Of a DNA stretch of 64,000 nucleotides, positions 25,109 through 60,965 are shown piece by piece. A program made the position numbers and the translations under genes. The stretch is from Candidatus Saccharibacteria bacterium UBA6824. GTDB lineage: Bacteria; Patescibacteriota; Saccharimonadia; Saccharimonadales; UBA10212. The first letter of the stretch is position 1, and each line of letters opens with the position of its first letter. The notes below the pieces were generated by a model. It was not told where the DNA came from, did not search any database, and saw only the letters and a list, made by a program, of their open reading frames with translations. The stretch spans positions 9,851 through 73,850 of the forward strand of contig DKEK01000003.1 of NCBI GenBank assembly GCA_002452155.1, read 5' to 3'.

Positions 25109-25620
25109 TCATGCAAGAACTGGCTGCTAGACCACAGCTTATCTTCGCCAACACCGGATATAATTTCGATACCATATTTCTCACAGGTTTGCCATTCGGG
25201 GATCGTTTTTTCATCTACGCGGTCGCCGCCCTTGGTAAAGACATCTGGTTTTAAAGCTTCTAGGGCTTTACTGACTGTTTGGTCACCTTTTATCTCGAAA
25301 GGTATAACATAATCGACGTCCCTAATACCGCTGACTATTTGGCAGCGGGTTTTCAAATTTTGAAACGGTCGGCCTTTTTTAGCGGTTAAAAAAGCATCGC
25401 CGTTGACGATCACTGCTAACGTGTCGCCATATTTTTTACTTTCGATGATACAACTAATATGCCCGGGGTGGATCGGGTCAAAGCCGCCGCTGGTGGCCAC
25501 GATTTTGCCAAGCTTGGGCCGCAGTTTTGAAAACTCGGAAAATGAGACGATACTAGCACCCCAACTTTTAGTCATTGCAAAAATTATACCAAAGTCTTTA
25601 GCAGAAAATGGTTTTTGCAT
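25090..25620 (-). CDS. cytidylyl/adenylyl-transferase-family protein (RfaE-II/TagD-like)
   Basis: Nucleotidyltransferase HxGH motif in VATSGGFDPIHPGHISCI. Small (176 aa). Confidence 0.65.
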   Translation of the reverse strand: MQKPFSAKDFGIIFAMTKSWGASIVSFSEFSKLRPKLGKIVATSGGFDPIHPGHISCIIESKKYGDTLAVIVNGDAFLTAKKGRPFQNLKTRCQIVSGIRDVDYVIPFEIKGDQTVSKALEALKPDVFTKGGDRVDEKTIPEWQTCEKYGIEIISGVGEDKLWSSSQFLHEWTSGK

Positions 25621-30699: not shown

Positions 30700-30727
30700 C
30701 TATTGTATACTGACAAGTAAGATATCC

Positions 30728-32002
30728 ATGAGTATTTCTGCCTCTAATACCAAGGCACCAAACTATTATAAAAGCAGTGCAGTTTTCTTATTTCTTTCCC
30801 TGCTGTCGGCGGTCATCAACTACGCCTACTACCCAGTTATTGCCCGCTTTTTAACGCCGGCGGACTTTGGCGCCGTCCAAGCCCTGGTCGCGATTTTGCT
30901 GCAAGTCGGGGCGATATTTGCCGGGCTCAATTTAGCCACTATATACCTGGTCAATAAGCTAAACTTTGAGCGATCCAAAAGAGCCGTAGAAATCTTACAG
31001 AAGTTAACGACCGGTGTATTTATAGCCGCAACGATGGCCGTGATTATCTTTCAGGCCGCCGTCATGAACTTTTTAAACATCGACAACCCCCTGTATATAT
31101 TTATCCTGGCATTGGACTTAATCACTACTATCCCCTTTATCATTGCTTTTGGTTATTTGCAGGCCCGGCGCCAGTTTGTGACCGCCGGTACGCTGCAACT
31201 GAGTGTTGTCCTGGTCAAGTTGTTTGCCGGTGCCGCTTTGGCGAGGCGATACGGAGCCAGCGGCGCCTTGGCCGGCATTGCCCTGGGCCAAGTTCTGGGA
31301 ATGTTTTTATTCTGGATTGTCGGCAGCTTTTATCATTTTCGTCTATGGGATCACAGGGTCTTGGGCGGCCTGAGCTTGCCCTCAGCAGCGGAGCTAAAGT
31401 TTATTAAGCCGTTGGCCAAAGCTACCGGCGCTATATTTTTAGTCAACGTGATTCTAGTCATTTATATTTCGTTTAGCATCATCGCCGCGCGGCATTATTT
31501 TGAACCCCATACCAGCGGCCTCTTCACCGGTGCCTCGACGATTGCCAGCGCTGCAGTATTTGTCTGCCTGCCGCTCATCGGCGTCCTGCTACCGCACCTA
31601 AACATAAAAAGTCTGGTCGCTAATAAATCAGAGCTAGCTAAAACCAGCGCCATGGTGCTAATAGTAGCTGGGGCGTCCATAGCGGTCCTGGCGGCCGTCT
31701 CGTCGCAGCTGCTGCAAATTTTTGGCAAAGATTACCGGGCAATGAGTTATTTAATGGTTCGGCTGGGCATTATGATGTCGCTGGTAGCAACTATTAGTTT
31801 GGCGTCTCAAGTTGGCGCCTTTTACGCGCCCGTCCGGACGGCTGTTATCTGTCTGGCCGGGTTTTTGGTACTGGCAATCGCCGTCATGAAAAACCACGCC
31901 ACATTGGCGTCTTTTGTTTCGACTATGACAGCCGTTTTTGCTACCATAGCCCTAGTTGGCATTTTGCAAATAATATGGATATATAATCATGGCAGCCAGT
32001 GA
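30728..32002 (+). CDS. Wzx-type oligosaccharide flippase (MOP superfamily)
   Basis: 12-TM profile. The N-terminal block LLSAVINYAYYPVIARFLTPADFGAVQAL is typical of polysaccharide biosynthesis (Wzx) proteins. I moved the start from the track's 30638 to the ATG at 30728, because the extension overlaps the divergent gene. Confidence 0.7.
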   Translation: MSISASNTKAPNYYKSSAVFLFLSLLSAVINYAYYPVIARFLTPADFGAVQALVAILLQVGAIFAGLNLATIYLVNKLNFERSKRAVEILQKLTTGVFIAATMAVIIFQAAVMNFLNIDNPLYIFILALDLITTIPFIIAFGYLQARRQFVTAGTLQLSVVLVKLFAGAALARRYGASGALAGIALGQVLGMFLFWIVGSFYHFRLWDHRVLGGLSLPSAAELKFIKPLAKATGAIFLVNVILVIYISFSIIAARHYFEPHTSGLFTGASTIASAAVFVCLPLIGVLLPHLNIKSLVANKSELAKTSAMVLIVAGASIAVLAAVSSQLLQIFGKDYRAMSYLMVRLGIMMSLVATISLASQVGAFYAPVRTAVICLAGFLVLAIAVMKNHATLASFVSTMTAVFATIALVGILQIIWIYNHGSQ

Positions 32003-34160: not shown

Positions 34161-34975
34161 TTACTGGAGCGGATTTTATTGAATAACCAAAAACGCAGCC
34201 GCGGCGGCATCAGGTACATGGTGGCAAATTGGACTCCGTTATAAATTTTGTCAGCTAGCGTCACCTCGTAGCCGTAATTTCTGACTGCTTGGCGGCGAAC
34301 GTAGAATGTCTTTTTTTCCATAAGACGGGCGCCGCGCTGGGTAACTGACTGCTTGTGCGTCCGGACGCGGTAAAGCGGTTCGGCCAGGTTGGCCAGTTCG
34401 CCTTTGGCGCCGAGCCGCATCGCCAGATCGATATCTTCTGCCGGCTCTAATTGCGGATTGTAGGCCGGCGACTCCAGTTTATCGGCTCTGATCATTAAAC
34501 TGGCCAGGCAAAAAGGCGAGTAGCGGAAAAAAGTCCGACGGATTTCTTGATTGCCTAGCGGGTAGCGGCGGTCATTGAGGCGGTTCATTTGCCCGTCGCA
34601 CCACTGTGCGGCGGTTCCAACGGCCACCACATCTGAATTAGTTTCTAAGAATTTAAGCTGTTTTTCCAGGCTGGTGGGCAGGCGCTCATCATCGCTATCG
34701 AGAAGTGCTATGTATTTGCCCTTGGCCTTGGAAATTGCAAAGTTGCGGCTACGGGTTTGTTTGATATTTTGCTTATTGTGGTAGGCTCGGATGCGTTTGT
34801 CCTTCCCTGCCAAGCGGTCGATAACTTCGCCGGTTTTATCACTGCTAGCGTCATTAACCACGATTAGTTCCCAGTTCTTGTAAGTTTGGTTCAACAGACT
34901 ATCAACCGCCGTCTCGATATAGTCTTCATTGTTCCAGGCCGGCATAATGACAGACACCAGTGGTTCGGATTTCAT
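34157..34975 (-). CDS. GT2-family glycosyltransferase
   Basis: VSVIMPAWNNEDYIETAVDSLLNQTY, VVNDASSD, and ALLDSDDE (DxD). Confidence 0.8.
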   Translation of the reverse strand: MKSEPLVSVIMPAWNNEDYIETAVDSLLNQTYKNWELIVVNDASSDKTGEVIDRLAGKDKRIRAYHNKQNIKQTRSRNFAISKAKGKYIALLDSDDERLPTSLEKQLKFLETNSDVVAVGTAAQWCDGQMNRLNDRRYPLGNQEIRRTFFRYSPFCLASLMIRADKLESPAYNPQLEPAEDIDLAMRLGAKGELANLAEPLYRVRTHKQSVTQRGARLMEKKTFYVRRQAVRNYGYEVTLADKIYNGVQFATMYLMPPRLRFWLFNKIRSSK

Positions 34976-35074
34976 TGTCCCATTAAATGTAACATAGACG
35001 AGTGTCTAGCAATAACCCTTCAAAACTCTAGTGCTTGGTGGTATAGTAAGCTGTAGGTAAGTCAAGATAAATAT

Positions 35075-35590
35075 ATGGCTAAAAGACTCAAAAAGCTAAA
35101 AAAACTGGCTCGAAGACCGTTACCGTTAGCAGTAACCTTAGTTTTGATTTTGATCGCTCTTGGGCTGGGTTGGGTCCATTGGCATAATAAATCTCCGCAG
35201 ACGACTACTGGCGGCAGTTTGAGCCCGGCGACCACCGCCGAAAAACAAGCGGCTGCCGACCACAAAGACCAAATCGTCCAGCAACAACAGAACCAGTCTA
35301 GCCCGGCCGCCTCAGGCACTAAGAGTGTAACCCTTGTGATAACGGAAGCCAGTTCAACTGGTATTAAGGGTTATGTCCAGGGCGTCTTCGAAGATGGTGG
35401 CACCTGCACCGCTACTGCTACTCAGGGTTCACAAACCGTCACTAAAACTTCAGCTGGTTTTGCCAATGTATCCTACACCCAGTGCGCGCCGATTAACTGG
35501 ACGTTAGGTTCTGGTACGTGGACAGTTAGTTTAAGTTATAAATCAGTGTCTGCTTCCGGCAGTGCCAGCAGAACCATTGAGGTCAAATAA
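35075..35590 (+). CDS. membrane-anchored secreted protein, unknown function
   Basis: K/R-rich N-terminus plus the TM PLAVTLVLILIALGLGWV, a Q/S/T linker, and a ~90-aa beta-rich C-domain with two Cys. It ends 3 nt before the next gene. Confidence 0.5.
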   Translation: MAKRLKKLKKLARRPLPLAVTLVLILIALGLGWVHWHNKSPQTTTGGSLSPATTAEKQAAADHKDQIVQQQQNQSSPAASGTKSVTLVITEASSTGIKGYVQGVFEDGGTCTATATQGSQTVTKTSAGFANVSYTQCAPINWTLGSGTWTVSLSYKSVSASGSASRTIEVK

Positions 35591-35593
35591 ATT

Positions 35594-37603
35594 ATGAGGT
35601 GGTTAAAAAAACCATACGTTTATACTTTGGCCCTTGCGTTTATCGCGTTATTTAGTTGGCTGAGCATAAGTCCGCACGTGTCAGCCCTGTCAGGTGGTGA
35701 TTTTATTGCTGGTCGCATCATGGATGACGGCATTTTCTTTAACCCAAGCACCATGAACCCTGGTGATATCCAGGCGGTCCTAAACGCTAAGGTGCCGGTT
35801 TGCGATACCAACGGCACAGAGCCTTCGGGCCATGCTGGCTATGCCACGCGGGCAGATTGGGGGACGGCCAATGGTTACCCGCCCCCCTATACTTGCCTCA
35901 AAGACTACTCTCAGAACATCCAAGGCAGCTCAGCTGATACTTACTGTGGTGGCAATGTCGGCGCTGGCACAAAATCAGCCGCCCAAATTATTTATGACGT
36001 AGCCCAGGCCTGCGGCGTAAACCCCAAGGTTTTGATCGTTCTGCTAGAAAAAGAACAAAGCTTAGTTACCGATGATTGGCCGTGGAGCGTCCAATACCGC
36101 AGCGCTACCGGCTATGGCTGTCCCGATACAGCACCCTGCGACGCCCAGTATTACGGCTTTTTCAACCAAGTCTATAATGCTGCGCATCAGTTCCAGCGCT
36201 ATGTCAAACAATCAAATTTATTCAACTATGTCTCCGGCCAAACGAGCTTTGTCCAATATAACCCTAATTCCGGCTGCGGCGGCACCAATGTCTTTATGCA
36301 AAACCAAGCTACAGCTGGACTTTATAACTACACACCATACCAGCCCAACCAAGCCGCCCTCAATAATCTATATGGCACCGGCGATAGTTGCAGCGCCTAT
36401 GGCAACCGTAATTTCTGGCGCTTGTACATAGATTGGTTCGGATCACCCATTTCTACAGTTCCCTATGCCTGGTTATACGAAGGTCAAGGGGCCTATTCGG
36501 ATGCTAGCAGAACACAGGCCTTTACATCTGTACCGACAGTAGCTCCGGGTGGTAAGTTCTACGTCAGATTAAAGGCCCGCAATATGGGCACTGTGACCTG
36601 GGACCGTTCATTTCTCCACCTTGGGACCTCACGACCTATGGACAGAGTCAGTGTTTTTGCGGACTCGGGATGGTTAGGCAATAGTCGCCCGGCGCAACTC
36701 CTTGAAAGCTCTATTCCTCCCGGCCAAATAGGTACCTTCGAGTTTGCCATGCAGGCCCCCAGTGCACCAGGGGTATATAATGAATACTTTAATGTTGTAG
36801 CCGAGGGACGTTCTTGGCTTAATGATCTGGGCTTTTTCTTGACTATAAATGTTAATAACCCCCTAACCACTCCTCCGAACTCGACCAATACTTCACTGCA
36901 TTCTGGCGATGCTGACCTTCATAGAGACGACTATCTGCTTTCACCCGACGCGCAGTCGGCGCTAACGCTCCAACGCAATGGAGACTTGGCGCTTTACTCT
37001 AATTTTCAGTTGGTTTGGGAGAGCGGTACACAAGGACAAACTCCCGGTCGGTTGACTATGCAGCCGGATGGCAACTTGGTTTTGTATAATACTGATGTCC
37101 AAAATCCTTGGAGCTCCCAAACCAATGGCAATAATAACTCGTGGCTGCAGCTGAATACCGACGGCAACATGGTTATTTATAGACCCGGCAATACACCAAT
37201 TTGGTCGCAAGATTATGTAATCCAAACCCCCGACCACTTGAGCTACATCAACACCACTTTTGCGCCTGGGATTGGCGGTATTGCTCGGATGTATCCTGGC
37301 CAGAGTATCGATACGGCGGATAGGCGGTTTCATTTGATACTTCAGCGCGACGGAAACTTAGTGTTTTACTCACCCAGCAGGGCACTATGGAGCACCGGCA
37401 CAAACGGTAGGCAAACGGCCTTCTTGGCTATCCAGCCCGACGGCAACCTAGTGCTTTATGATCGTAGCGGGGTAGCTCTTTGGGCCAGCAGTACTACCCG
37501 TTCTGGCCCGACTCGCCTAATAGTTCAGCAAGACGGTAACTTGGTAATTTACAACCAGCAAAATATTCCTCAGTGGAATACCGGCACCGCCGGTGCACAA
37601 TAA
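35594..37603 (+). CDS. secreted protein: lysozyme/transglycosylase-like N-domain (tentative) + NBR1/Ig-like domain + two bulb-type lectin domains
   Basis: Signal peptide YTLALAFIALFSWLSISPHVSA. SAAQIIYDVAQACGVNPKVLIVLLEKEQSL resembles the catalytic-Glu helix of glucosaminidase/SLT folds. VRLKARNMGTVTWDR...PGQIGTFEFAMQAPSAPGVYNEYFNVVAEG is an NBR1-like Ig pattern. Six lectin sub-motifs are present, including MQPDGNLVLY, LNTDGNMVIY, LQRDGNLVFY, IQPDGNLVLY, VQQDGNLVIY. Confidence 0.75.
   Translation: MRWLKKPYVYTLALAFIALFSWLSISPHVSALSGGDFIAGRIMDDGIFFNPSTMNPGDIQAVLNAKVPVCDTNGTEPSGHAGYATRADWGTANGYPPPYTCLKDYSQNIQGSSADTYCGGNVGAGTKSAAQIIYDVAQACGVNPKVLIVLLEKEQSLVTDDWPWSVQYRSATGYGCPDTAPCDAQYYGFFNQVYNAAHQFQRYVKQSNLFNYVSGQTSFVQYNPNSGCGGTNVFMQNQATAGLYNYTPYQPNQAALNNLYGTGDSCSAYGNRNFWRLYIDWFGSPISTVPYAWLYEGQGAYSDASRTQAFTSVPTVAPGGKFYVRLKARNMGTVTWDRSFLHLGTSRPMDRVSVFADSGWLGNSRPAQLLESSIPPGQIGTFEFAMQAPSAPGVYNEYFNVVAEGRSWLNDLGFFLTINVNNPLTTPPNSTNTSLHSGDADLHRDDYLLSPDAQSALTLQRNGDLALYSNFQLVWESGTQGQTPGRLTMQPDGNLVLYNTDVQNPWSSQTNGNNNSWLQLNTDGNMVIYRPGNTPIWSQDYVIQTPDHLSYINTTFAPGIGGIARMYPGQSIDTADRRFHLILQRDGNLVFYSPSRALWSTGTNGRQTAFLAIQPDGNLVLYDRSGVALWASSTTRSGPTRLIVQQDGNLVIYNQQNIPQWNTGTAGAQ
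36920..37600 (+). repeat. tandem-lectin coding module, copy 2 (paralogous to 27994-28662)
   Basis: See copy 1. Same orientation, about 8.3 kb apart. Confidence 0.8.
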
Positions 37604-37633
37604 CACCTTAATTTTGCTATAATATGCCAATCG

Positions 37634-38797
37634 ATGGCAAAAAAAATCTATATTGACGGCCTAGGCCTGGTCGAAGGACATTTTAGTGGCGTTGGCCATT
37701 ATATCTTGGGCATCTTGCGTGGTATCGACGACATTTTAGAAGCCAAAAAATATGCCGGCGAATCGGTGCCTGACGTGCGGGTGATCATCCCGCGCGATAG
37801 CTTTGGTAAATTTCACGAATACGCTTTCAAGCATATCGGCTACAAAAAATTCCCTGCTAGCTTTAGGCTACTGAGCGCCCTTTGGCGCCGCCGCTGGCTG
37901 CCACCGCTCGACCTTTTGTACGGTAAAGCCGTTTATATCTTCCCGCGCTTTGTCAGCATGCCCCTGCTCTTTAGCAAATCGGCGCTGGTCATCTTCGACA
38001 TCAGTTATGAGACCCACAGGCAGTACTCTGACGAAGGCAACGCCATTTTTCTTTCCAAGCAAGTCAAAAAGTCCCTGCAAAAAACTAAAAAAGTTATCAC
38101 TATTTCACAAAACTCCCGCCGCGAAATTATCGATTTCTATAAACTACCGGCAGAAGATGTCAAAGTAGCCACTCCGGCGGCCGACCCGAGGCTGTTTTAT
38201 CGGCGCAGTCGAAAAGAGATTGACGGGGTTAAAAAGAAATACGGTATCAAGAGCGATTACATCCTGGCGCTATCAAACCTTGAGCCGCGCAAGAACCTTG
38301 ACAGTTTAGTCGAAGCCTACTGCCAATTGCCAAAAGAACTTAAGCAAGACACTGCCCTGCTGCTGGTCGGCGTCAGCGGTTGGAAAACGGATGAGCTATT
38401 CCAAAAAATCATGGCCCGCATTGACGAAGGCTACAACATCATCCGACCCAGTGAATATGTCTTAGACGAGGACAAACCGGCCGTAATTTCCGGTGCCAAA
38501 ATGCTGGTCTTTCCTAGCCACTACGAGGGCTTTGGCATGCCGCCACTGGAGGCACTGGCTTGCGGTGTGCCGACGATAGTGGGCGACAATTCGTCCCTAC
38601 CAGAAGTTATTGATGACAAAAATGCTCGTGTACCTAGCGACGATCTACCGGCACTAATTAAAAAAATGACTGAGTACCTCGAAGGTATAGACAAAAAAAC
38701 TGCCGAAACTCTAACCGAAGGGCCAAAACGGGCTCGTGACTTTTCCTGGCAAAAGAGCGCCCAGGTCTTTTTGGATGTCGTGGAGGAATTGTCATGA
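37634..38797 (+). CDS. GT4-family glycosyltransferase
   Basis: The GT-B C-terminal block MLVFPSHYEGFGMPPLEALACGVPTIVGDNSSLPEV is present. Confidence 0.8.
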   Translation: MAKKIYIDGLGLVEGHFSGVGHYILGILRGIDDILEAKKYAGESVPDVRVIIPRDSFGKFHEYAFKHIGYKKFPASFRLLSALWRRRWLPPLDLLYGKAVYIFPRFVSMPLLFSKSALVIFDISYETHRQYSDEGNAIFLSKQVKKSLQKTKKVITISQNSRREIIDFYKLPAEDVKVATPAADPRLFYRRSRKEIDGVKKKYGIKSDYILALSNLEPRKNLDSLVEAYCQLPKELKQDTALLLVGVSGWKTDELFQKIMARIDEGYNIIRPSEYVLDEDKPAVISGAKMLVFPSHYEGFGMPPLEALACGVPTIVGDNSSLPEVIDDKNARVPSDDLPALIKKMTEYLEGIDKKTAETLTEGPKRARDFSWQKSAQVFLDVVEELS

Positions 38798-40095
38798 CGC
38801 TCGGCATAGATATTTCGGCGCTACAGGGTCCGCACCGCATGCGCGGCATTGGTTTTGCCATTTTAAACTTTATAAACAATATCTCTAGTGCAGACCGCAG
38901 TAGCCACAAATTTGTTTTCTTTATGTTCAAACAAAATGAAGTCGAGGCGCTCGCCTTACTCAACCTGGACGGCATGAATTATGAGGTTCGTTATTTGGAG
39001 TCCAAAGGTAAAAAAGCCGAACCGAAGACGTCACTGCTCTCCGCCCGCTGGCGTCATCTACTGCACAGCGCCGGCCGCCAGCTAGGCGAGTTAAAGGACC
39101 GATACGTTGGCAATTCGATGGTTAAAGATTGTAGGGACATTGACGCCTTTATTCAGCCGGACCAATCGGCCAGTCTACCGCGCAGCCGCCGCAAGATGAA
39201 GAAAGTTTTGATAATTTACGACATCATCCCCTACGTGCTGGAGTGGGAATATTTATGGTCATATGACACAGCCCGCCTGCGCGGATTTTCGCGCAAAGCG
39301 GCACTGCGCTGCGTGGCTCGCCGTTGGTTTTACATTAAAAAGTTAAAGGTTAATACCAGGCGAGCTGATATTTTGTTAGCCATATCCGAAGTTACTAAAA
39401 ACGACTTTGTGCGCCACACCGGCGCCAAGTCCAAAAAGATCAAAGTTATTCATCTGGGAGTTCCGGATCAAACAAACGTTGCCAAAGAAATGAGGCTGCA
39501 GCGCTACCATAAATCTTCATGGGGTTATGTAGCCAAAGATTTCAGGCTGGATCCCAAGACGCCGTTTATTTTATATGTTGGTGGTGGCGACCGGCGGAGG
39601 CGGATTGATGAGCTTATTGCCGCTTTCAATAATTTACGCGGCGAAGGCATAGACCTTAAATTGGTTTTGTCTGGTGATTCCATGCAGGGCCCGGACAATA
39701 TTGCTACGCAGGAAATCCAGGGTGCGCTCAAAACTTCGTCCTATCTTGAAGATATTATTTTCGCTGGTTTTACCAGTGATGAAGCCCGGAATTATTTATA
39801 CAAAAACTGCCTGGCCTTTGTTTATCCTAGTACCTATGAAGGTTTTGGTCTACCGGTACTGGAAGCCATGGACCATGGCTGCCCGGTAATTTGTTATCCT
39901 AACCAGGCGGTCAAAGAAGTAGCCGGTAATTTACCGATTTATGCCAAGAACCATGGTGACCTTTATGAAAGCATCAAGCAGCTTCTAAGTATGCCCACCG
40001 GGGAGCGTGAGGTCGTGGGGCGCAAAAACATGGCCCACGCCGAGAAATTTTCGTGGTCTAAAACCGCCAAAGAAATTATGTCAGCTATTTCTTAG
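38794..40095 (+). CDS. GT4-family glycosyltransferase
   Basis: The block AFVYPSTYEGFGLPVLEAMDHGCPVICYPNQAVKEV is present. It overlaps the previous GT by 4 nt. Confidence 0.8.
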   Translation: MTLGIDISALQGPHRMRGIGFAILNFINNISSADRSSHKFVFFMFKQNEVEALALLNLDGMNYEVRYLESKGKKAEPKTSLLSARWRHLLHSAGRQLGELKDRYVGNSMVKDCRDIDAFIQPDQSASLPRSRRKMKKVLIIYDIIPYVLEWEYLWSYDTARLRGFSRKAALRCVARRWFYIKKLKVNTRRADILLAISEVTKNDFVRHTGAKSKKIKVIHLGVPDQTNVAKEMRLQRYHKSSWGYVAKDFRLDPKTPFILYVGGGDRRRRIDELIAAFNNLRGEGIDLKLVLSGDSMQGPDNIATQEIQGALKTSSYLEDIIFAGFTSDEARNYLYKNCLAFVYPSTYEGFGLPVLEAMDHGCPVICYPNQAVKEVAGNLPIYAKNHGDLYESIKQLLSMPTGEREVVGRKNMAHAEKFSWSKTAKEIMSAIS

Positions 40096-41113
40096 CGAGA
40101 TTTTTGTTTTTAGAAAAGACAAGCATAACCCAGTCATCCGCTTTGCCTAAGATTGAATGGTAATCTTTATGCTCGGGTGTATAAAGACTGCCCCGTTCGT
40201 TCACTAAATAAATATTTCCAAAATCCTCGAGCATTCGTTCATAGAAATCCTTTGGATTTTTATAGCTGTCCTTAGTAAACTCTACGAAAAGTGTTAAGTC
40301 AGGACTTTTCCGAACTATTTTTCTCATACCCTGGTAGGCTTCATCTTCATAGCCTTCAATATCCATTTTGATAAGATCAATTTTGAGTATTTGATTCTTC
40401 ATACAATATGAGTCGATGGACGTTGAGTTTACTTTTATACTTTTGTTGACTTTTAGCAGCATTTTATCGTGCATATATTTATCGAGGTGCTTAAGTGGGT
40501 GTAATGTAGAAGAGCCTATGTAATCCTTCAGTATGTTGAGCGTAACAGTGCCTTCTCGTTCTGCTATTGCCAGGTTTTCGACTTTGGACTGCTCGACATA
40601 AAAGTTAGTTGAAAGTGTTTTATTTATATAAGGGATAAGGTCCGGGTTGGCCTCAAAAAAAACTATTTTTGATTTCTTTTTATTTGTTTTATGGGCAGCC
40701 ACTAAGCCAAAGTAGCCAAAGTTAGCCCCAATATCAAAAACTGTGTCTTCGGCCTTTATTACAGAGAGCCAAGCCTGAGTTATTTGGGGCTCCCAAATGC
40801 CGTCTAAGGCTAGATGAGGAGCTACCGATATATCCCTGGTATCTAGATATATTTTTAATCCATTAAATAACTTGGCAATAACTTCATGTTCAGAGATCTG
40901 TACTATGCCTGAATTTGTAATTTGTTGACTTAGATGCTTATTTTGTTGACTTAGATGCTTATAAAGTTCTAGCTGCCGACTGTTAAATGCAGATTGCTCT
41001 TGATATATCACTTCGAGTCGAGTTCTTAAGATCGCTATCGACTCTATCACTTCTGAAAGAAATCTGTCCCGAGTTTTTTTAAGAAGTTCTTTAGGTGTAT
41101 TAAGTTTGCTCAT
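40085..41113 (-). CDS. FkbM-family SAM methyltransferase with N-terminal coiled-coil extension
   Basis: FkbM motif VFDIGANFGYFGL and IDLIKMDIEGYE. The N-terminal ~70 aa are heptad-like (LEVIYQEQSAFNSRQLELYKHLSQQNKHLSQQ). Confidence 0.75.
   Translation of the reverse strand: MSKLNTPKELLKKTRDRFLSEVIESIAILRTRLEVIYQEQSAFNSRQLELYKHLSQQNKHLSQQITNSGIVQISEHEVIAKLFNGLKIYLDTRDISVAPHLALDGIWEPQITQAWLSVIKAEDTVFDIGANFGYFGLVAAHKTNKKKSKIVFFEANPDLIPYINKTLSTNFYVEQSKVENLAIAEREGTVTLNILKDYIGSSTLHPLKHLDKYMHDKMLLKVNKSIKVNSTSIDSYCMKNQILKIDLIKMDIEGYEDEAYQGMRKIVRKSPDLTLFVEFTKDSYKNPKDFYERMLEDFGNIYLVNERGSLYTPEHKDYHSILGKADDWVMLVFSKNKNLAKK
40920..40961. repeat. in-frame tandem duplication of 21 nt (2 copies, 20/21 identical) = duplicated heptad KHLSQQN/KHLSQQI
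   Basis: Read directly: aTTTGTTGACTTAGATGCTTA followed by tTTTGTTGACTTAGATGCTTA. Confidence 0.9.
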
Positions 41114-41115
41114 TA

Positions 41116-42324
41116 TTAATTAACAATTGTATATTTTACGCTGACTGGCGGCAACACAGCTGTAGTCGACCGCGTTGGCTTCTTGACGATGAAGCTCGCT
41201 GCGTCAGTGAACCAATCAAAAGCAATACCTGCGTCATTTACCAGAGTAAGCGTTATGAAGTATTTGCCGTCATTAAAAATATCCAACATCTTCCAGCTAA
41301 AGACAACTCTTGAGCCAGCCTCAAGGGGAGCAAGATCTTGTTGATGTAACATTCGGTTATTCATTGCCGTAACTTCAACTCCATCTTGGGCCACAATATG
41401 CAAGCCATATATTACTCCATTAACCGGCTTATGTGCTAACGCTTCCGCAGTAATGATAACCTCGTCTTCGACAAGTAAAACTTTGGTGCTCTGAATTTTA
41501 ATATCACCATTACCCCATCGTTTGCCTTCTTTTTCTTTCTCAGTTTCTTTAGATGGATCTTCGTCAATGAAGAGTTGGCCATATTTGTCAGCTATATCCG
41601 AGGTTTTGCCGATGGCCTTGACTTCACCGTTGTCTATCAACATAGCTCTGTCGCAAAATTCTCTTATGGCACCCATGTCGTGACTGACAAATATGACTGT
41701 TTTGTTATTTTTTTTCAATGTTTTAAAGTACTCAAAACATTTGCGTTGGAAGGCGGCATCGCCAACAGCCAGCACTTCGTCAATTAGCAAAATGTCAGCT
41801 TCGGCGCGTACAGCCATCGAAAAGGCCAGGCGGACCTGCATGCCGGAGGAATAGTTTTTGAGTTTTTGGTCCATGAACTTTTCTAGCTCGGCAAACTCAA
41901 CAATGTCGCTGTACTTGGCGTCGATCTGCTTTTGCGAAAAACCCAGTAGCGCGCCGTTGAGGTAAACGTTTTCGCGACCGGTCAGTTCCGGGTTAAAACC
42001 GACACCCAGTTCAATAAATGGTACCAGTTTACCGCTGACTTCCAATTTGCCGCTGGTGGGCTGGTAAATGCTGGCGATGATTTTAAGCAGTGTACTTTTG
42101 CCGCTGCCATTACGGCCGACAATGCCAAAGAATTCGCCCTTTTTAACTTCAAAGCTGACATCTTGCAGGGCTTTTTGCAGCGAATATCGGCGGCCAGTCG
42201 TAAAAATATTTATAAAGGCCGACTTTAGCGAGGTGTGTTTTTCCCGCGGCAGTTTAAAGACTTTACCAACACCATTGACCCTAACCGCAACCTGTCTACT
42301 ATCAACTGACGACTGACGACTCAT
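41116..42324 (-). CDS. wzt: polysaccharide ABC exporter ATP-binding protein (Wzt/TagH type) with extra C-terminal beta-rich domain
   Basis: Walker A GIVGRNGSGKSTLLK, signature YSSGMQVRLAFS, Walker B ILLIDEVLAVGD, then a ~150-aa C-domain. I moved the start to the ATG at 42324 (MSRQSSV), 1 nt after the permease stop. The track's longer ORF overlaps the permease. Confidence 0.85.
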   Translation of the reverse strand: MSRQSSVDSRQVAVRVNGVGKVFKLPREKHTSLKSAFINIFTTGRRYSLQKALQDVSFEVKKGEFFGIVGRNGSGKSTLLKIIASIYQPTSGKLEVSGKLVPFIELGVGFNPELTGRENVYLNGALLGFSQKQIDAKYSDIVEFAELEKFMDQKLKNYSSGMQVRLAFSMAVRAEADILLIDEVLAVGDAAFQRKCFEYFKTLKKNNKTVIFVSHDMGAIREFCDRAMLIDNGEVKAIGKTSDIADKYGQLFIDEDPSKETEKEKEGKRWGNGDIKIQSTKVLLVEDEVIITAEALAHKPVNGVIYGLHIVAQDGVEVTAMNNRMLHQQDLAPLEAGSRVVFSWKMLDIFNDGKYFITLTLVNDAGIAFDWFTDAASFIVKKPTRSTTAVLPPVSVKYTIVN

Positions 42325-42325
42325 C

Positions 42326-43123
42326 TTAGATTTCCTCCGCGAAGGATTTAGATTGGCGCCTGAAATAAGCCAGCCCCCCAATGAGCACCAGCACACTTAG
42401 CGCATAGGGGATAAATTTGGCCGGCCCGCCGTCATAGATCTGGGCGATAGTAACCGTCTGATGGGTAATTGAGCTATAGCGGGCGTCCTGGATTGCCTGT
42501 GTCATAGGGTTGAGAAAAATCACTTTTTGTAGAGTGTGGTTAGTAATTAGCGTGATCGGGTAAATAATTGGCGTCAGGTAGAAGCCGGCCTGCAAGATTA
42601 CCTCCCATATATAGTTCATGTCGCGGAACCGCACATAAGCGGCAGCCAAAAACAGCGACAGACCGAGGGCGAAAATATAAACCTCCAGTAAAATAAGCGG
42701 CAGCCACAAAGTAGTCCGGAGTAAGTCGACGTGGTTGATTAGCAGAAAGACAATAAAAACCAGTAGATTTAAAAACAAGTTTATAAGTGCCGAGATACTG
42801 CTGGAAAAGACAATTACCCAGCGTGGAATATTAATTTTACGCAGCAAATCCCCGCGACCGACAATCGAGCCCAGACTTTGGGCTGTCATCTCGGCAAAGA
42901 AGTTCCAAATAATGATTCCCAGCAGCAGATAAACCGGGTAATGCGGTATGCCGGCGCCAAGACGGATAAAGCGCACGAACACGACGTAAAGGATAAGAAA
43001 TAACAGCAGCGGCCGTAGCAGCGACCAGGCATAGCCCAAAACCGAACCTTGGTAACGCAGCTTGAAATCGGTTTTAACAAGTTGCCGTAGTAAAATGGCC
43101 GAATATCTGTAGCGGTTTTTCAC
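42326..43123 (-). CDS. wzm: ABC-2-type polysaccharide exporter permease (Wzm/TagG type)
   Basis: Six TM segments over 265 aa. The N-terminal block LRQLVKTDFKLRYQGSVLGYAWSLLRPLL is typical of ABC-2 permeases. Confidence 0.85.
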   Translation of the reverse strand: MKNRYRYSAILLRQLVKTDFKLRYQGSVLGYAWSLLRPLLLFLILYVVFVRFIRLGAGIPHYPVYLLLGIIIWNFFAEMTAQSLGSIVGRGDLLRKINIPRWVIVFSSSISALINLFLNLLVFIVFLLINHVDLLRTTLWLPLILLEVYIFALGLSLFLAAAYVRFRDMNYIWEVILQAGFYLTPIIYPITLITNHTLQKVIFLNPMTQAIQDARYSSITHQTVTIAQIYDGGPAKFIPYALSVLVLIGGLAYFRRQSKSFAEEI

Positions 43124-43190
43124 TTCACCTTATTTTATAACTTTTACATCTGTGCCACAATTAGAGGTGATGAGTCCCGTTAGAGCCGGT

Positions 43191-43451
43191 ATGTACTATG
43201 TTTACGTATTGAAGGCCCCTGTAAGCGGGAGGCTTTATACTGGTTATACTTCCGACCTACGAAAACGCTTGGCTGAACATAATGCCAAGAAGTCTAGCTA
43301 TACTAAATCTCGAGGACCATACGAATTGATATATTATGAGGCGTGTTTACACTCAAGCGACGCAAAGATGAGAGAAAAATACTTAAAATCGGGAATGGGA
43401 AAGCGCTATTTGAAGAATAGAAACAAGCGTTTTCTGGCTCTAACGGGATGA
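43191..43451 (+). CDS. stand-alone GIY-YIG nuclease-domain protein
   Basis: MYYVYVLKAPVSGRLYTGYTSDLRKRLAEHN contains the GIY...YIG blocks and Arg, and the Glu lies in YYEAC. Start is chosen at the conserved YVY motif; alternative upstream starts are at 43152 and 43170. ATGA overlap with rmd. Confidence 0.75.
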   Translation: MYYVYVLKAPVSGRLYTGYTSDLRKRLAEHNAKKSSYTKSRGPYELIYYEACLHSSDAKMREKYLKSGMGKRYLKNRNKRFLALTG

Positions 43452-44368
43452 GGGCATTAGTAACTGGCGTCAATGGCTTTGTCGGCAAGCACTTGGTCCG
43501 CGAGCTCGGTAGTAGGGGCGACGAAGTTGTGGGTATCGGCCGCGAAGCTAGTCCGGCGCCAGAGATCGAAGAGCTGTTAGCCGATTATTGGGTCTGCGAT
43601 CTAATGGATAAAGAGGCGGTCGGCAAGTTACCACTGGAAGATATTGGTGAGGTAATCAGCCTGGCCGGCTTAGCCGGCGTCGGCGATTCTTTTTCTGACT
43701 CCGATAAATATAAGGCCATTAATGTGGCAGTTTTGACCAATTTACTCCAGACCTTAATCGATAAAAATTTAAAACCAAGGGTTATTGCCGTCAGCACTGG
43801 CGCAGTTTACAAGCCCGCTCAGCCCTTACCCTTAACCGAGGATTCGAAGCTAGCCGAGGTCTCGCCATACGCTACCAGCAAGTTGATGATGGAGCGGGCG
43901 GTTGAAGGTTTCCGAACTAAAGGACTGGAGATTATTATTGTTAGGCCGTTTAACCATATTGGTCCGGGACAAGAACCGGGCTTCTTGGTACCTGATCTTT
44001 ATACCAGAATCGTGACAGCCCAAAAAACAGGTCAACCAATCAAAGTCGGTAATTTGTCGACCAGACGCGATTATACGGACGTACGCGATGTCGCCCGAGC
44101 CTACGATGATTTGGTCCATGCCAAGGAGCTTAAACACAATCTTTATAACATTTGCAGCGGCAAGAGCGTGTCCGGCCAAGAAATACTTGATAAACTTCTA
44201 GTCTTGATGGGCGTGAGTGTTGGTGTTGAACCCGATCCGGCTTTGATGAGGCCTAATGACAACCCCGATTTATATGGTAGTTACCAGCGTTTGCACAGCC
44301 AGACTGGCTGGCAGCCGCAAATACGACTGGAAAAAACGCTAGCCGATTTTGTGGCCTCTGCGAGTTAG
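43448..44368 (+). CDS. rmd: NAD(P)-dependent SDR epimerase/reductase, candidate GDP-4-keto-6-deoxy-D-mannose reductase
   Basis: Rossmann motif [17 protein letters not shown] and catalytic YATSK. It converges on gmd with a 4-nt overlap. Product specificity is inferred from context. Confidence 0.65.
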
Positions 44369-45345
44369 TCTTTCTTTTTAGCTTCTATCTCGAGGTCGTT
44401 TTTGACCATCATTTTTATAAGTTCCGGGAAGCTCACTTTCGGTTCCCAGCCTAGAACTTTTTTGGCTTTAGAATAGTCGCCGGTGAGCACATCTACTTCG
44501 GCCGGACGCATAAAGCGTTCGTCCTGCTTAATGTAGGGTTTCCAGTCTTTAATGCCTACCTCTGCGAAAGCTAGGTCAAAAAGGTCTTTGATGGAATGAG
44601 TCTCGCCAGTAGCTATAACGTAATCATCGGGCTTGTCTTGCTGAAGCATCAACCACATTGCCCGTACATAATCGCCCGAATATCCCCAGTCCCGCTTAGA
44701 ATCAAAATTGCCAAAGGCCAGTTCTTTTTGCAGACCCAGCTTAACGCGGGCGGCAAAACGAGTAGCTTTCCGGGTCACGAACTCATAACCTCGACGGGGT
44801 GATTCATGATTGAACAAAATGCCGCTACAGGCAAACATGTCGTAGCTTTCGCGGTAATTAAGAGTTATATAGTGGGCGTATACTTTGGCCACGCCGTAGG
44901 GACTGCGGGGATGAAAAGGTGTTAGTTCGGTCTGTGGTGTTTCACGAACTTTACCGAACATCTCGCTGGAAGAGGCTTGATAGTATTTAATCTTTTTGGC
45001 TTTATCAGCTATCCTTATGGCTTCCAGCATACGCATGGCACCCAAGCCCGTAATATTACCGGTTAGTTCGGGTTGCTTGAAAGATAGCGCCACAAAACTC
45101 ATGGCCCCAAGGTTATAAACTTCATCCGGCTCGGAGTAAACCAATGCTTCAACTAGTGAGCTAATGTCGGCTAAGTCGCCTTCAATTAGCTCAACTTTGG
45201 GTATTTCTTGCTCGACAATAAGCCGTTTAGGATTATTTTGGCCCCGGATCAGACCAAAGACCAGGTAGCCTTTGTCCAGTAAAAATTCTGCAAGGTACAT
45301 ACCGTCTTGGCCGGTTATACCAGTAATAAGCGCTCGTTTAGCCAT
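44365..45345 (-). CDS. gmd: GDP-mannose 4,6-dehydratase
   Basis: [66 protein letters not shown]. Confidence 0.9.
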
Positions 45346-45425
45346 TTGGTGTTCCTATTTACTAGTAATCTATTATACCAGCGTATGCCTGCCAAGAAGT
45401 AGATAATTGGGGTAAACTTTAAGTT

Positions 45426-46520
45426 ATGTCTACGAAGATAGTAATTGATGCTCGTGAGTCTGGGACAGGTACTGGACGCTACATAGACAAACTAATCGAG
45501 TACTTGCATAAGCTTAAGCCTGATTTCGAAATAGTTGTATTGACCAAGTCTGGGCGGATTGAGTTCATGAAAGCTGCCGCGCCTAGCTTTGAAGTGGTGG
45601 AATCTAACTATAAAGAATTTACTTTTGCCGAGCAGATTGGCTTTTTGCGACAACTCAATGGCCTAAAAGCCGACTTGGTGCATTTTGGTATGACCCAGCA
45701 ACCTATTTTATACCGCGGCAAGGCTGTAACCACCATTCACGACCTAACAACCGCACGTTTTACTAACCCCATCAAAAACTGGCTGGTTTTTAAGTTTAAG
45801 CAGCAGATGTATAAATTGGTCATAAGGCGCGTCGCCAAAAAATCTGTAATGTTATTAACTTCAAGCGAATATGTAAAACGTGATGTCGCACAATTCGCTA
45901 GACTGCCGGCCAATAAAATTGTCGTAGTTTATGAAGCGGCTGATAAAATTACGGCTCCAGTTGAACCAATCGTTTCTTTAAGTGGTAAACAATTTATCAT
46001 GTATGTCGGCCGAGCTCAGCCGCACAAAAATCTAAGGCTGGCTGTTGACGCCTTTGCGGAGCTCAAAAAAGATTATCCCCGGTTACATCTAGTTTTAGTC
46101 GGCAAGCTCGACGATAGCTATCGTCTACTGCAGAAGTACGTTCGAGACAGAGGCGTAGAACAAGTTGTATTTACAGATTTTGTCAGCGAGGGGGAGCTTC
46201 GGTGGCTATATGAAAATGCCCGGGCCTATGTGTTCCCTTCGCTATCCGAAGGCTTTGGCCTGCCCGGTTTGGAAGCCTTGGCCCATGGCCTACCTCTCGT
46301 GTCCAGCCAGGCTAGCTGTTTGCCAGAGATTTATGGTGATGCGGCTCTATATTTTGATCCCAAGGACACAGACGATATAGCTCAAAAGGTTAAGGCTGTG
46401 CTTCAGAACCCCCAGATCGCTGAGAAACTGCGTACAGTCGGCCCTAAGCAGGCCGCTAAGTACTCCTGGCAACGAACAGCCAAGCAGACACTCGAGGTCT
46501 ATAGCAAAGTATTAGGCTAG
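45426..46520 (+). CDS. GT4-family glycosyltransferase
   Basis: The block AYVFPSLSEGFGLPGLEALAHGLPLVSSQASCLPEI is present. Confidence 0.8.
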   Translation: MSTKIVIDARESGTGTGRYIDKLIEYLHKLKPDFEIVVLTKSGRIEFMKAAAPSFEVVESNYKEFTFAEQIGFLRQLNGLKADLVHFGMTQQPILYRGKAVTTIHDLTTARFTNPIKNWLVFKFKQQMYKLVIRRVAKKSVMLLTSSEYVKRDVAQFARLPANKIVVVYEAADKITAPVEPIVSLSGKQFIMYVGRAQPHKNLRLAVDAFAELKKDYPRLHLVLVGKLDDSYRLLQKYVRDRGVEQVVFTDFVSEGELRWLYENARAYVFPSLSEGFGLPGLEALAHGLPLVSSQASCLPEIYGDAALYFDPKDTDDIAQKVKAVLQNPQIAEKLRTVGPKQAAKYSWQRTAKQTLEVYSKVLG

Positions 46521-46545
46521 TCCGACGCTTTGACTCTGTGGCGGG

Positions 46546-47010
46546 TTACGGAGAAGGCTTGGGAATGATAATCCCGAGAGTCAGCTGGCTGGCTTGGCTG
46601 CCTTCGAAGGTCACTGTATATGTTTTATCGCCACCGAACTTAATATCAACTGTATTGTCACCGGTGCGAATAGATCCAGTAGCGACCGTGGTCGTACTGG
46701 TGACAAAGGCTAACTGCCCATCACCGTCACTTTTGATTTTCAAACGTAGGATTGTACCTGGTTTGACCAAGTATGTACTAGGGGGTTGAGTAACTTTACC
46801 ACCGGCTACGGTAATCACGGGAACTTCAGCTAATTGGCCCGGGGGGCCAGTGTAATCACCCAAACTGACAGACTGAACTGCGGCGGCAGGGATTGGAGTA
46901 GTGGTCTCTACTGCTTTGTGGTGCTTAGCTAAAAAGACTATGCCGAACGTGGTAAGCAAACTTGCAAGCACAATTATGATAGCGGCGGAAGTGAAGCGGG
47001 GTTTTGACAT
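46546..47010 (-). CDS. membrane-anchored secreted beta-rich protein, unknown function
   Basis: N-terminal anchor AAIIIVLASLLTTFGIVFLA, then a ~110-aa beta-sandwich-like sequence. Confidence 0.45.
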   Translation of the reverse strand: MSKPRFTSAAIIIVLASLLTTFGIVFLAKHHKAVETTTPIPAAAVQSVSLGDYTGPPGQLAEVPVITVAGGKVTQPPSTYLVKPGTILRLKIKSDGDGQLAFVTSTTTVATGSIRTGDNTVDIKFGGDKTYTVTFEGSQASQLTLGIIIPKPSP

Positions 47011-47040
47011 TGTGCTCCTACGCTAACACGAAAGAGGCGC

Positions 47041-47068
47041 TCTTGCGAGCGCCTCTTTAATTTCTCCG
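47041..47068 (-). terminator. rho-independent terminator after the 241-aa surface protein gene
   Basis: AAAGAGGCGCTC TTGC GAGCGCCTCTTT is a perfect 12-bp stem with T/A runs on both sides. Confidence 0.7.
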
Positions 47069-47103
47069 TAGTACCTTTGGAGAACCATCCGAACTTTTTA
47101 TTT

Positions 47104-60958: not shown

Positions 60959-60965
60959 TTCGTAC

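Follow-up and report, generated by a model that had tools for sequence, protein, structure and literature searches.

A probable ABC transporter-dependent D-rhamnan cassette and its lectin-tagged partner proteins in Saccharibacteria

Introduction

Why would a Saccharibacterium carry genes resembling the D-rhamnan antigen locus of Pseudomonas aeruginosa beside genes for proteins that end in a lectin module of the type known to recognize D-rhamnose? The question is raised by 64,000 nucleotides from Candidatus Saccharibacteria bacterium UBA6824 (GCA_002452155.1, contig DKEK01000003.1, positions 9,851 to 73,850; this whole stretch is the window in what follows). A preliminary description, made from the sequence alone, had proposed an ABC-transporter D-rhamnan pathway at 40085-45345, forming one functional unit with two enzymes tagged with tandem monocot mannose-binding lectin (MMBL) modules. 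Saccharibacteria, a lineage of the candidate phyla radiation, are ultra-small obligate epibionts of Actinomycetota, and their envelope is described as Gram-positive-type. The best explanation for the whole, at a probability of about 0.6, is a conserved Saccharibacteria surface-glycan cassette for an ABC-transporter-dependent D-rhamnan, with lectin-tagged partner proteins. Within this explanation, it is very likely that the cassette makes and exports a polymer of a 6-deoxyhexose derived from GDP-mannose, while the chances are roughly even that the ligand of the lectin is the cell's own glycan.

Surface building and host recognition in Saccharibacteria are little known, and the inhibition of TM7x host binding by rhamnose is one experimental lead (PMC11623550). 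According to one survey, hardly any bacteria outside Pseudomonas and Aneurinibacillus have the GDP-D-rhamnose pathway (bioRxiv 10.1101/854612). A literature search returned no paper linking Saccharibacteria with MMBL or lectin-like bacteriocins, and for gmd/rmd in Patescibacteria it returned passing annotations of auxiliary metabolic genes in phages only. The enzymes and the export logic are of known kinds; what appears to be new, as far as the literature shows, is a GDP-D-rhamnose cassette conserved near the replication origin across dozens of Saccharibacteria species, and present also in many Actinomycetota, and its coupling to a producer-encoded family of MMBL-tagged proteins. The covariation of MMBL with gmd/rmd reported below turns this into a concrete hypothesis that, if true, describes a surface-anchoring or host-recognition system in this phylum and extends the principle of a wall polymer with a cognate binding module to a new module, a new sugar, and a new lineage.

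Gene content of the cassette

The interval 40085-45345 comprises six open reading frames (ORFs), for an FkbM methyltransferase, Wzt, Wzm, a GIY-YIG protein, a short-chain dehydrogenase/reductase (SDR), and Gmd, and is flanked by three genes for GT4 glycosyltransferases. Together with the lectin-tagged proteins and a small membrane protein encoded upstream, these are:

26473-28665 (+), S8 subtilase of 730 amino acids with a C-terminal tandem MMBL (Peptidase_S8 149 bits; B_lectin; NF033557 174 bits)
35075-35590 (+), Ser/Thr-rich protein of 171 amino acids with a single transmembrane (TM) segment and no family match
35594-37603 (+), secreted or membrane-anchored protein of 669 amino acids with an enzyme-like N-terminal domain (N-domain), an immunoglobulin (Ig)-like domain, and a tandem MMBL (B_lectin 57 bits; N_BRCA1_IG; NF033557 145 bits)
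37634-38797 (+), GT4a (Glycos_transf_1 88.7 bits; weak similarity to Protein Data Bank (PDB) entries including 3OKA, 4e-8)
38794-40095 (+), GT4b, syntenic partner of GT4a (Glycos_transf_1 84 bits)
40085-41113 (-), FkbM-family SAM methyltransferase (TIGR01444 87.8 bits; PF05050 60.6 bits)
41116-42324 (-), wzt, ABC ATPase with a C-terminal Wzt_C domain (ABC_tran 83.9 bits; Wzt_C, PF14524, 55 bits, cut-off 30.4)
42326-43123 (-), wzm, ABC-2 permease with about 6 hydrophobic segments (PF01061 68.6 bits)
43152-43451 (+), GIY-YIG ORF of 99 amino acids between wzm and rmd (PF01541 57 bits)
43448-44368 (+), rmd-like extended SDR, probable GDP-4-keto-6-deoxy-D-mannose 4-reductase (from PDB matches and tree, below)
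44365-45345 (-), gmd, GDP-mannose 4,6-dehydratase (TIGR01472 433.4 bits, equivalog cut-off 415; PF16363 421 bits)
45426-46520 (+), GT4c, beside gmd (Glycos_transf_1 111 bits)

The genes named in the preliminary description (Gmd, the SDR, Wzm/Wzt, the GT4 enzymes and, further upstream, a HAD-type enzyme and an NTP_transferase) are all ORFs where it had placed them and belong to the families it had given, with scores well above chance, and both lectin-tagged proteins exist; the methyltransferase, the Wzt_C domain, and the GIY-YIG ORF had gone unmentioned. The longest ORF for Wzt (41116-42396) over-extends, and the real start, giving 402 amino acids, is an ATG at 42324 that follows GGAGG and lies one base past the stop of wzm. 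The SDR gene and gmd are convergent and overlap by 4 bp. The gene for the 669-residue protein is the first long gene of a plus-strand run that continues into GT4a and GT4b; it begins 3 bp after the gene for the 171-residue protein and ends 30 bp upstream of GT4a.

The cassette lies 5 kb from jag-yidC-rnpA-dnaA-dnaN, that is, adjoining the replication origin. This origin-side placement is kept: the cassette is directly beside jag-yidC-rnpA-rpmH-dnaA in the window (46.5-52.5 kb) and in three of the loci fetched for comparison, which are numbered here with the prefix L (L006, L088, L091). The SDR, Gmd, the 669-residue protein, and DnaA have identical copies on soil and permafrost metagenome contigs and in assembly GCA_036771655.1. 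The SDR homologues with named sources are from Saccharibacteria/Patescibacteria, and the DnaA 90% cluster contains proteins with these names. A weak PsbP_2 match and HpsP-like glycosyltransferase matches had hinted at a cyanobacterial source, which was rejected because homologue names and contigs point to Saccharibacteria/Patescibacteria.

Identity of the reductase

The best PDB matches of the SDR are the Rmd of Aneurinibacillus thermoaerophilus (2PK3, 2.5e-50) and that of P. aeruginosa (6X3B, 2.1e-38), with the next functional class in the ranking at 5e-23. Its identity is 35.9% to the former and 33.8% to the latter, compared with 33.6% between the two Rmds and 21.7% between the SDR and its own Gmd. 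When 99 homologues from the fetched loci were aligned with these two Rmd sequences, the GxxGxxG motif (G7/G10/G13), T117 (S or T), Y141, and K145 were invariant in the 99 homologues. In a neighbor-joining tree rooted on Gmd and built without support values, the Saccharibacteria sequences form a clade to which both characterized Rmds are basal or external, which places that clade inside the span of known Rmd function. The preliminary description had called the SDR Rmd-like and had left GDP-fucose synthase (Fcl) as the assignment to be distinguished from it; the SDR does not cluster with Fcl, whose model scores it at 37.8 bits (cut-off 500), but groups with both characterized Rmds, its best solved relatives, so Fcl was rejected. 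Homologues with 40-44% identity, usually beside gmd, are also widespread in Actinomycetota (L025, L041, L043, L046, L050-L054, and L056-L087).

The lectin-tagged proteins

The 669-residue protein and the S8 protease each have a single hydrophobic segment at the N-terminus and a tandem MMBL at the C-terminus. In the former, four QxDxNxVxY sites are intact, a fifth reads NxDxNxVxY, and the sixth is degenerate, and the latter has five intact motifs; across about 37 family members, the six sugar sites are intact in 22, 33, 31, 36, 35, and 37 sequences. The QxDxNxVxY sites of pyocin L1 and putidacin L1 prefer D-rhamnose to D-mannose about 10-fold and leave L-rhamnose unbound (PMC3916391). The AlphaFold2 model of the 669-residue protein (mean predicted local distance difference test score, pLDDT, 85.8) has as its top Foldseek match pyocin L1 with D-rhamnose (4LED, 9e-14), followed by LlpA, and the MMBL part of the model matches pyocin L1 and monocot lectins of the beta-prism II fold, with TM-scores of up to 0.9 to single domains; B_lectin (PF01453) exceeds its cut-off in this protein. 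UmbA4 (9OEE), a Streptomyces toxin-particle lectin bound to the teichuronic acid of its target, is also among the structural matches.

The N-domain is Cys-rich and has an invariant Glu and an invariant Asp. Its model (pLDDT 87.3) has no significant structural match, and the list of weak matches consists mostly of GH73 glucosaminidases, goose-type lysozymes, and lytic transglycosylases, which is a hint that the N-domain may be a wall glycan hydrolase. In a scan of 68 cluster representatives carrying the closest MMBL modules, drawn from a library of 1.8 billion proteins, the fusion partners were mostly peptidoglycan hydrolases (CHAP 10, M23 2, GH25 1, NlpC/P60 1, Amidase_2 1) together with proteases, and the module thus behaves as a wall-targeting tag. 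The S8 protease, an orthologue of which is encoded directly upstream of the block in L005, seems to belong to the unit with less regularity than the 669-residue protein.

Conservation of the block and covariation of MMBL with rmd

About 40 species-level Saccharibacteria/Patescibacteria loci keep the core Wzt-Wzm-Rmd-Gmd-GT4 with its gene order and orientations unchanged. In these, wzm is next to wzt in about 40, gmd is next to an rmd homologue in nearly all of the Saccharibacteria loci, and GT4c is kept downstream of gmd in most of them. The full block runs from a divergent membrane protein of about 700 amino acids through a TM protein of about 175 amino acids, the N-domain-Ig-MMBL protein, two GT4 enzymes, a methyltransferase, Wzt, Wzm, Rmd, and Gmd to a third GT4. 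At least 14 loci from Saccharibacteria have it (L005, L007, L022, L027, L088-L090, L094, L096, L097, L111, L123, and L135 among them), and these are diverged, the Rmd being as little as 43% identical to that of the window. An ORF of 171-194 amino acids just upstream of the N-domain protein is found in L005, L007, and L088-L092.

The relation between MMBL and rmd was examined in 80 metagenome loci and five contigs fetched via the non-lectin N-domain, a sample independent of rmd, and the count was restricted to loci whose ORF is complete and whose downstream sequence reaches 7 kb or more. Nine were MMBL+/Rmd+, none MMBL+/Rmd-, four MMBL-/Rmd+, and 19 MMBL-/Rmd- (Fisher p = 2.5e-5); rmd is thus adjacent to 9/9 of the MMBL-bearing genes and to 4/23 of the non-MMBL variants. 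MMBL and non-MMBL variants are interleaved on a neighbor-joining tree of the N-domain (without support values), where several MMBL+/Rmd+ groups are separated by MMBL-/Rmd- sequences, so the association is not that of one clade. The non-MMBL variants have extra Ig-like domains at the C-terminus and neighbor glycan loci of other kinds: in L091 there are Wzm/Wzt and GT4 genes but no gmd/rmd, while in L092 (GCA_964507855.1, 10001-22523) a variant with an fn3/Ig C-terminus is encoded near UDP-glucose dehydrogenase, ATP-sulfurylase/APS kinase (PAPS synthesis), a sulfotransferase, and an inositol-phosphatase-like gene, which suggests a sulfated surface glycan in another Saccharibacterium.

The proposal of a single unit made up of the pathway and the lectin-tagged protein has become much stronger, as the synteny holds in many diverged Saccharibacteria and MMBL tracks adjacent gmd/rmd. 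The most likely role of the tandem MMBL would be to bind the cell's own D-rhamnan and so hold the 669-residue protein and the S8 protease on the surface. The covariation of MMBL with gmd/rmd is predicted directly by such self-binding.

Weighing the explanations

Several points weigh against a D-rhamnan cassette with a self-binding lectin. The Fisher test ignores shared ancestry, having no phylogenetic correction. Four rmd-linked N-domain proteins are without MMBL, two MMBL-bearing loci with only 6-6.5 kb downstream show no rmd (one of them, L101, has gmd), and an MMBL gene occurs within 10 kb in only five species-level Patescibacteria rmd loci. That few rmd loci have MMBL means that the lectin is not needed for the pathway; the asymmetry nevertheless fits a self-anchor, since a binder depends on its ligand and not the reverse. 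The covariation is also what would be expected from host-specific adhesion combined with glycan mimicry. Co-transcription of the cassette is inferred from gene spacing only, and promoter and terminator scans of 34900-47100 performed no better than on shuffled sequence. The donor sugars of the GT4 enzymes are not readable from sequence, their solved relatives being generic GT4 matches only (the weak GT4a match 3OKA is the GDP-mannose-dependent PimB'), and a ManC-type GDP-mannose pyrophosphorylase is not in the window, nor is any from the window's contig among the best 120 ManC homologues. Finally, GDP-6-deoxy-D-talose synthetase (Tld) shares the substrate of Rmd and has the opposite outcome at C4, and the C4 stereochemistry of the SDR product is a prediction from sequence; a literature search for residues telling Rmd from Tld found none, and we know of no sequence rule for this stereochemistry.

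If the SDR were a 4-reductase with another outcome, such as Tld, the polymer would not be D-rhamnan and the analogy with P. aeruginosa would fail at the level of the sugar. Both enzymes act on the same intermediate, the identity of the SDR to characterized Rmds is just 34-36%, and only two Rmds have ever been characterized (bioRxiv 10.1101/854612); however, these two are no closer to each other than either is to the SDR, and they bracket its clade, while the lectin sites that covary belong to the manno-configured kind, which reads O2, O3, and O4, and would fit D-rhamnose over its C4 epimer, which makes a talose polymer improbable. The sugar may instead be right and the target of the lectin another cell. 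The MMBL-tagged hydrolase and protease could be secreted to attach to D-rhamnose-containing wall polysaccharides on the actinobacterial host, serving adhesion, remodeling of the wall, or feeding, with the epibiont's rhamnan as camouflage or a by-product of gene exchange with the host, and lectin and rhamnan genes as a joint adaptation to D-rhamnan-bearing hosts. The nearest relatives of the Rmds outside Patescibacteria are indeed from Actinomycetota (Microbacterium, Agrococcus, Demequina, Nocardioides, Acidimicrobiia), and a Microbacteriaceae/Nocardioides group nests among the Saccharibacteria Rmds, which suggests transfer between host and epibiont lineages, although the tree is the neighbor-joining one without support values. 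Rhamnose inhibits host binding by TM7x, and a rhamnose-rich wall polysaccharide of the host was named the likely lectin target (PMC11623550), but those experiments used L-rhamnose, which is the form left unbound by the sites of pyocin L1 and putidacin L1. The fusion of MMBL modules mostly to peptidoglycan hydrolases, as in lytic weapons, and the match to UmbA4 are in keeping with a host target. Against host targeting, it needs two coupled assumptions to account for a lectin occurring only beside gmd/rmd, the lectin gene precedes the genes for cytoplasmic rhamnan GT4 enzymes by 30 bp on their strand, and a lectin with affinity for D-rhamnan would also stick to the coat of its producer; host targeting with mimicry is considered unlikely. 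Rather improbable is a bridging role as a glycan "zipper" in which MMBL, with up to six intact sites, would bind both the cell's own methyl-capped D-rhamnan and host D-rhamnose wall polymers at the contact zone. If this were true, the wall hydrolase and protease would be held at the interface between epibiont and host, rmd/gmd would be exchanged between the two lineages so that both partners show the same rare sugar, and a matched glycan-lectin pair would be a determinant of host range in environmental Saccharibacteria.

A self-bound lectin must also be weighed against the absence of any relation between lectin and polymer. The N-domain protein would then be a general component of glycan loci, for instance a wall hydrolase for polymer insertion, the ligand of its MMBL would be a different mannose-type glycan, and the linkage of MMBL with rmd would reflect shared descent of one sub-lineage. 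The pair of a small TM protein and an N-domain protein does occur in glycan loci of any chemistry (L091, L092), the probability of MMBL given an rmd locus is low, and the statistics are without phylogenetic correction; but the interleaving on the N-domain tree, with MMBL+/Rmd+ groups split by MMBL-/Rmd- sequences, and the presence of rmd in all nine informative MMBL loci make shared descent a quite improbable account. Least credible by far is that the two proteins serve to kill rival cells in the manner of the LlpA bacteriocins, with the rhamnan as decoy or immunity layer. Both partially match the family model of putidacin L1 (NF033557), with the scores listed above, but fall below its cut-off of 275, and at 669-730 amino acids, with enzyme domains at the N-terminus and segments of membrane or signal type, they differ from LlpA, a free tandem lectin of 28 kDa; identity as LlpA/putidacin L1 bacteriocins was rejected for both proteins. 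LlpA killing is reported to involve the outer-membrane protein BamA, which a Gram-positive-type envelope would lack.

Proposed polymer assembly, capping, and export

The D-rhamnan cassette can be read as a pathway of five steps, for some of which candidate enzymes are encoded further upstream:

19893-21203 (-), Wzy_C membrane protein of the O-antigen ligase/O-oligosaccharyltransferase family (PF04932 61.9 bits; about 10-12 TM segments)
21225-22667 (+), WbaP/WsaP-like polyprenyl-phosphate hexose-1-phosphate transferase (Bac_transf 203 bits; TIGR03025 357 bits, cut-off 295)
28660-30699 (-), GT-C-like membrane protein without a family (about 9 TM segments and a soluble tail of 250 amino acids)
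30638-32002 (+), flippase-like membrane protein without a family (12-14 TM segments)

Gmd would convert GDP-mannose to GDP-4-keto-6-deoxy-D-mannose and the Rmd-like SDR would reduce this to GDP-D-rhamnose, the families being clear and the C4 outcome predicted. The three syntenic GT4 enzymes would then build a D-rhamnose-rich polymer on a polyprenyl carrier at the cytoplasmic face, with priming probably by the WbaP-like transferase at 21225, the candidate initiating enzyme. The FkbM methyltransferase is a candidate for the enzyme that adds a chain-terminating O-methyl cap: by its position and by comparison with known systems, it would methylate the non-reducing end and stop growth. In every full block wzt has a methyltransferase gene beside it (Methyltransf_11/23 in L005; FkbM in L007, L088-L090, and the window), and together with Wzt_C this resembles the arrangement of cap-dependent export; no solved structural relative of the FkbM protein was found. 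Wzt_C would recognize the capped end before Wzm/Wzt, in which PF01061, PF00005, and PF14524 are all above their cut-offs, exports the finished chain. The best PDB match of Wzt is the full-length Wzt of Aquifex aeolicus including its binding domain (8DKU/7K2T, 2e-64), and the alignment spans the C-terminal domain.

Outside the cell, an enzyme of the Wzy_C family would transfer the chain to a protein or wall acceptor, as the Gram-positive-type envelope would exclude lipid A-core, so this is not a lipopolysaccharide locus. The Wzy_C protein of the window, whose gene adjoins those of a GtrA protein and the WbaP-like transferase, is the candidate for this final step; homologues are encoded between gmd and GT4c in L007, L010, L023, L037, L047, and L090, while in L103 one adjoins rmd. 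The membrane proteins at 28660-30699 and 30638-32002, together with a GT2 (31989) and the GtrA protein (19438), may decorate the glycan outside the cell, and the GT2 genes and membrane proteins of 19.4-35 kb could serve chain decoration or a second glycan. Counterparts of the membrane proteins at 28660-30699 and 30638-32002 are encoded beside the lectin gene in L088, L089, and L091.

Comparison with known systems

The P. aeruginosa locus for common polysaccharide antigen (CPA) consists of rmd, gmd, wbpW, wzm, wzt, and wbpX/Y/Z with the methyltransferases PA5457/PA5459. The preliminary description had seen its logic in the window, and this part of the claim stands, as a Gmd/Rmd-type GDP-6-deoxyhexose branch sits with Wzm/Wzt and three GT4 enzymes; both systems share Gmd and Rmd for GDP-D-rhamnose, Wzm/Wzt, three GT4 enzymes, one or more methyltransferases, and a product that the tandem-MMBL family recognizes or, in the window, is predicted to recognize. 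Membership among lipopolysaccharide O-antigens, on the other hand, does not hold for a Saccharibacterium, as its Gram-positive-type envelope would rule out a lipid A-core acceptor. The candidate primer is WbaP-type, whereas that of CPA is WbpL of the WecA family, and the mutase in the window is HAD-type, whereas that of CPA is AlgC-type, with no WbpW-type phosphomannose isomerase/GDP-mannose pyrophosphorylase in the window. Profile searches of the window proteins found no PF00953, WbpW-like, or ManC-like gene. The MMBL protein, moreover, is encoded by the producer inside the locus and is not the bacteriocin of a rival. The locus thus appears to work like CPA, but belongs, if anywhere, with the surface-layer glycosylation (slg) and wall-polysaccharide pathways of monoderms.

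The Gram-positive slg systems are those of Geobacillus stearothermophilus NRS 2004/3a (WsaP, WsaC-F, Wzm/Wzt, WsaB) and A. thermoaerophilus L420-91T (Gmd/Rmd). In the model for the S-layer glycan of G. stearothermophilus, a WbaP-type enzyme primes the chain, transferases build it in the cytoplasm, methylation caps it, Wzm/Wzt exports it, and a Wzy_C enzyme transfers it, and the S-layer glycan of A. thermoaerophilus is built from D-rhamnose (PMC2943079). The window resembles these systems in its monoderm setting, WbaP-like primer, Wzm/Wzt, Wzy_C, and predicted cytoplasmic rhamnosyl polymerization and O-methyl cap (PMC2943079), and the Rmd of A. thermoaerophilus is the closest solved relative of the SDR. 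It differs in that the methyltransferase is a separate FkbM protein, while in slg systems it is a domain of a multidomain transferase, and in the lectin-tagged neighbor, which has no slg counterpart. No S-layer protein or other glycosylation target was identified at the locus.

Wzt_C and a methyltransferase directly beside wzt are shared with cap-dependent O-antigen export, as in Escherichia coli O9a/O8 (WbdD-Wzt), Klebsiella pneumoniae O12, and A. aeolicus Wzm-Wzt, although the putative terminator is FkbM-type and not a WbdD kinase-methyltransferase as in E. coli. With the streptococcal and lactococcal rhamnose polysaccharides (Rgp/Gac; RgpCD exporter; GtrB-like and GT-C decoration), the predicted polymer has in common that it would be an ABC-exported rhamnan of a monoderm, and the GT2, GtrA, and GT-C-like proteins of the window could decorate it outside as in Rgp/Gac. 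Those polymers, however, are L-rhamnans made from dTDP-L-rhamnose and attached by LCP proteins, and neither rmlBCD nor LCP genes were seen in the window.

The lectin module resembles LlpA, pyocin L1, and putidacin L1 in its tandem MMBL beta-prism and QxDxNxVxY sites, with the pyocin L1-D-rhamnose complex as the closest structure. Unlike in LlpAs, it is a C-terminal tag on N-terminal domains of 420-500 amino acids, with 4-5/6 sites intact compared with two to three in LlpAs. As an arrangement, a wall polymer serving as the non-covalent anchor of surface enzymes, with polymer and protein genes clustered, recalls the pairs of Firmicutes (SLH with pyruvylated secondary cell wall polymer, CWB2 with Clostridioides difficile PSII, and choline-binding modules with teichoic acid); the module (MMBL), the polymer (D-rhamnan), and the phylum are different, and binding is here predicted.

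GDP-mannose supply

Three genes upstream of the S8 protease gene bear on the supply of GDP-mannose:

24323-25108 (-), HAD-IIB phosphohexomutase, probable phosphomannomutase (PMM; PF03332 42 bits, cut-off 22.4; Hydrolase_3 53.6 bits)
25090-25620, cytidylyltransferase-like protein (RfaE-domain-II-like, 84.7 bits, cut-off 181.5)
25670-26374 (+), RmlA-like sugar-1-phosphate nucleotidyltransferase of 234 amino acids, NTP_transferase family (TIGR01207 125.8 bits, cut-off 360)

The preliminary description had assembled from the first and third of these, with Gmd and the SDR, a complete paper route from mannose-6-phosphate to GDP-D-rhamnose, of which the PMM step is plausible and the pyrophosphorylase step is unsupported. 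The best solved relative of the HAD protein is the alpha-phosphoglucomutase of Lactococcus lactis (4BND, 5.9e-51), followed by eukaryotic PMMs (1e-14), and although it passes the threshold of the Pfam PMM family, Hydrolase_3 scores higher. A literature search turned up nothing on activity of the L. lactis enzyme with mannose phosphates. The HAD protein is nevertheless probably a PMM, because in eight further loci from Saccharibacteria its orthologues (50-70% identity) directly abut an NTP_transferase of 346-354 amino acids with the ManC beta-helix. The family of this ManC shows high conservation in Saccharibacteria, and the source records name it mannose-1-phosphate guanylyltransferase. In the window, the neighbors of the HAD gene encode not ManC but the cytidylyltransferase-like protein and the nucleotidyltransferase of 234 amino acids. 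For the latter, all 21 PDB matches at E <= 1e-8 are RmlA (best 1e-33), the mannose-1-phosphate guanylyltransferase model gives just 37 bits, and alignment with Saccharibacteria ManC (L090, L092) extends over 15-18 residues only; as an RmlA-like protein with no meaningful similarity to Saccharibacteria ManC, it was rejected as the ManC of the pathway.

Inserted genes and other features of the window

The GIY-YIG ORF is probably an insertion outside the pathway. It overlaps the rmd start by 4 bp and is absent from the same intergenic spot in L005, L007, and L088-L090, and a 60% identical copy is found between Wzm and Wzt in the unrelated glycan locus L109 (4538-4843). It resembles a small mobile or selfish nuclease gene favoring these glycan loci. 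In L005 (14126-14594) and L007 (13636-14790), the rhamnan block or its margin also has insertions of toxin-antitoxin pairs (HicAB, ParE/YafQ-like, MazE/PemK).

Upstream of the glycan locus, a stretch of higher G+C content (0.56) encodes an fn3-domain protein of 407 amino acids (15780-17003, +) that could be another surface protein. At 10321-13048 (-), an RnfD/NqrB-like protein fused to an NAD-binding oxidoreductase domain is followed by an ApbE flavin transferase and an FMN_bind protein, a redox module unusual for a reduced genome. An AdoCbl-II cobalamin riboswitch (9211-9288, -; 47 bits, gathering score 36.5) lies upstream of an ORF of 559 amino acids (7474-9153) that has no Pfam match and may encode an unrecognized B12-related transporter or enzyme. 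The genes at 56400-63904 (-) encode a protein of 657 amino acids with SLT lytic transglycosylase and amidase_3 domains, a protein of 862 amino acids without a family, and a TraG/VirB4-like P-loop ATPase of 690 amino acids, a run that suggests a conjugation or type IV secretion-like apparatus.

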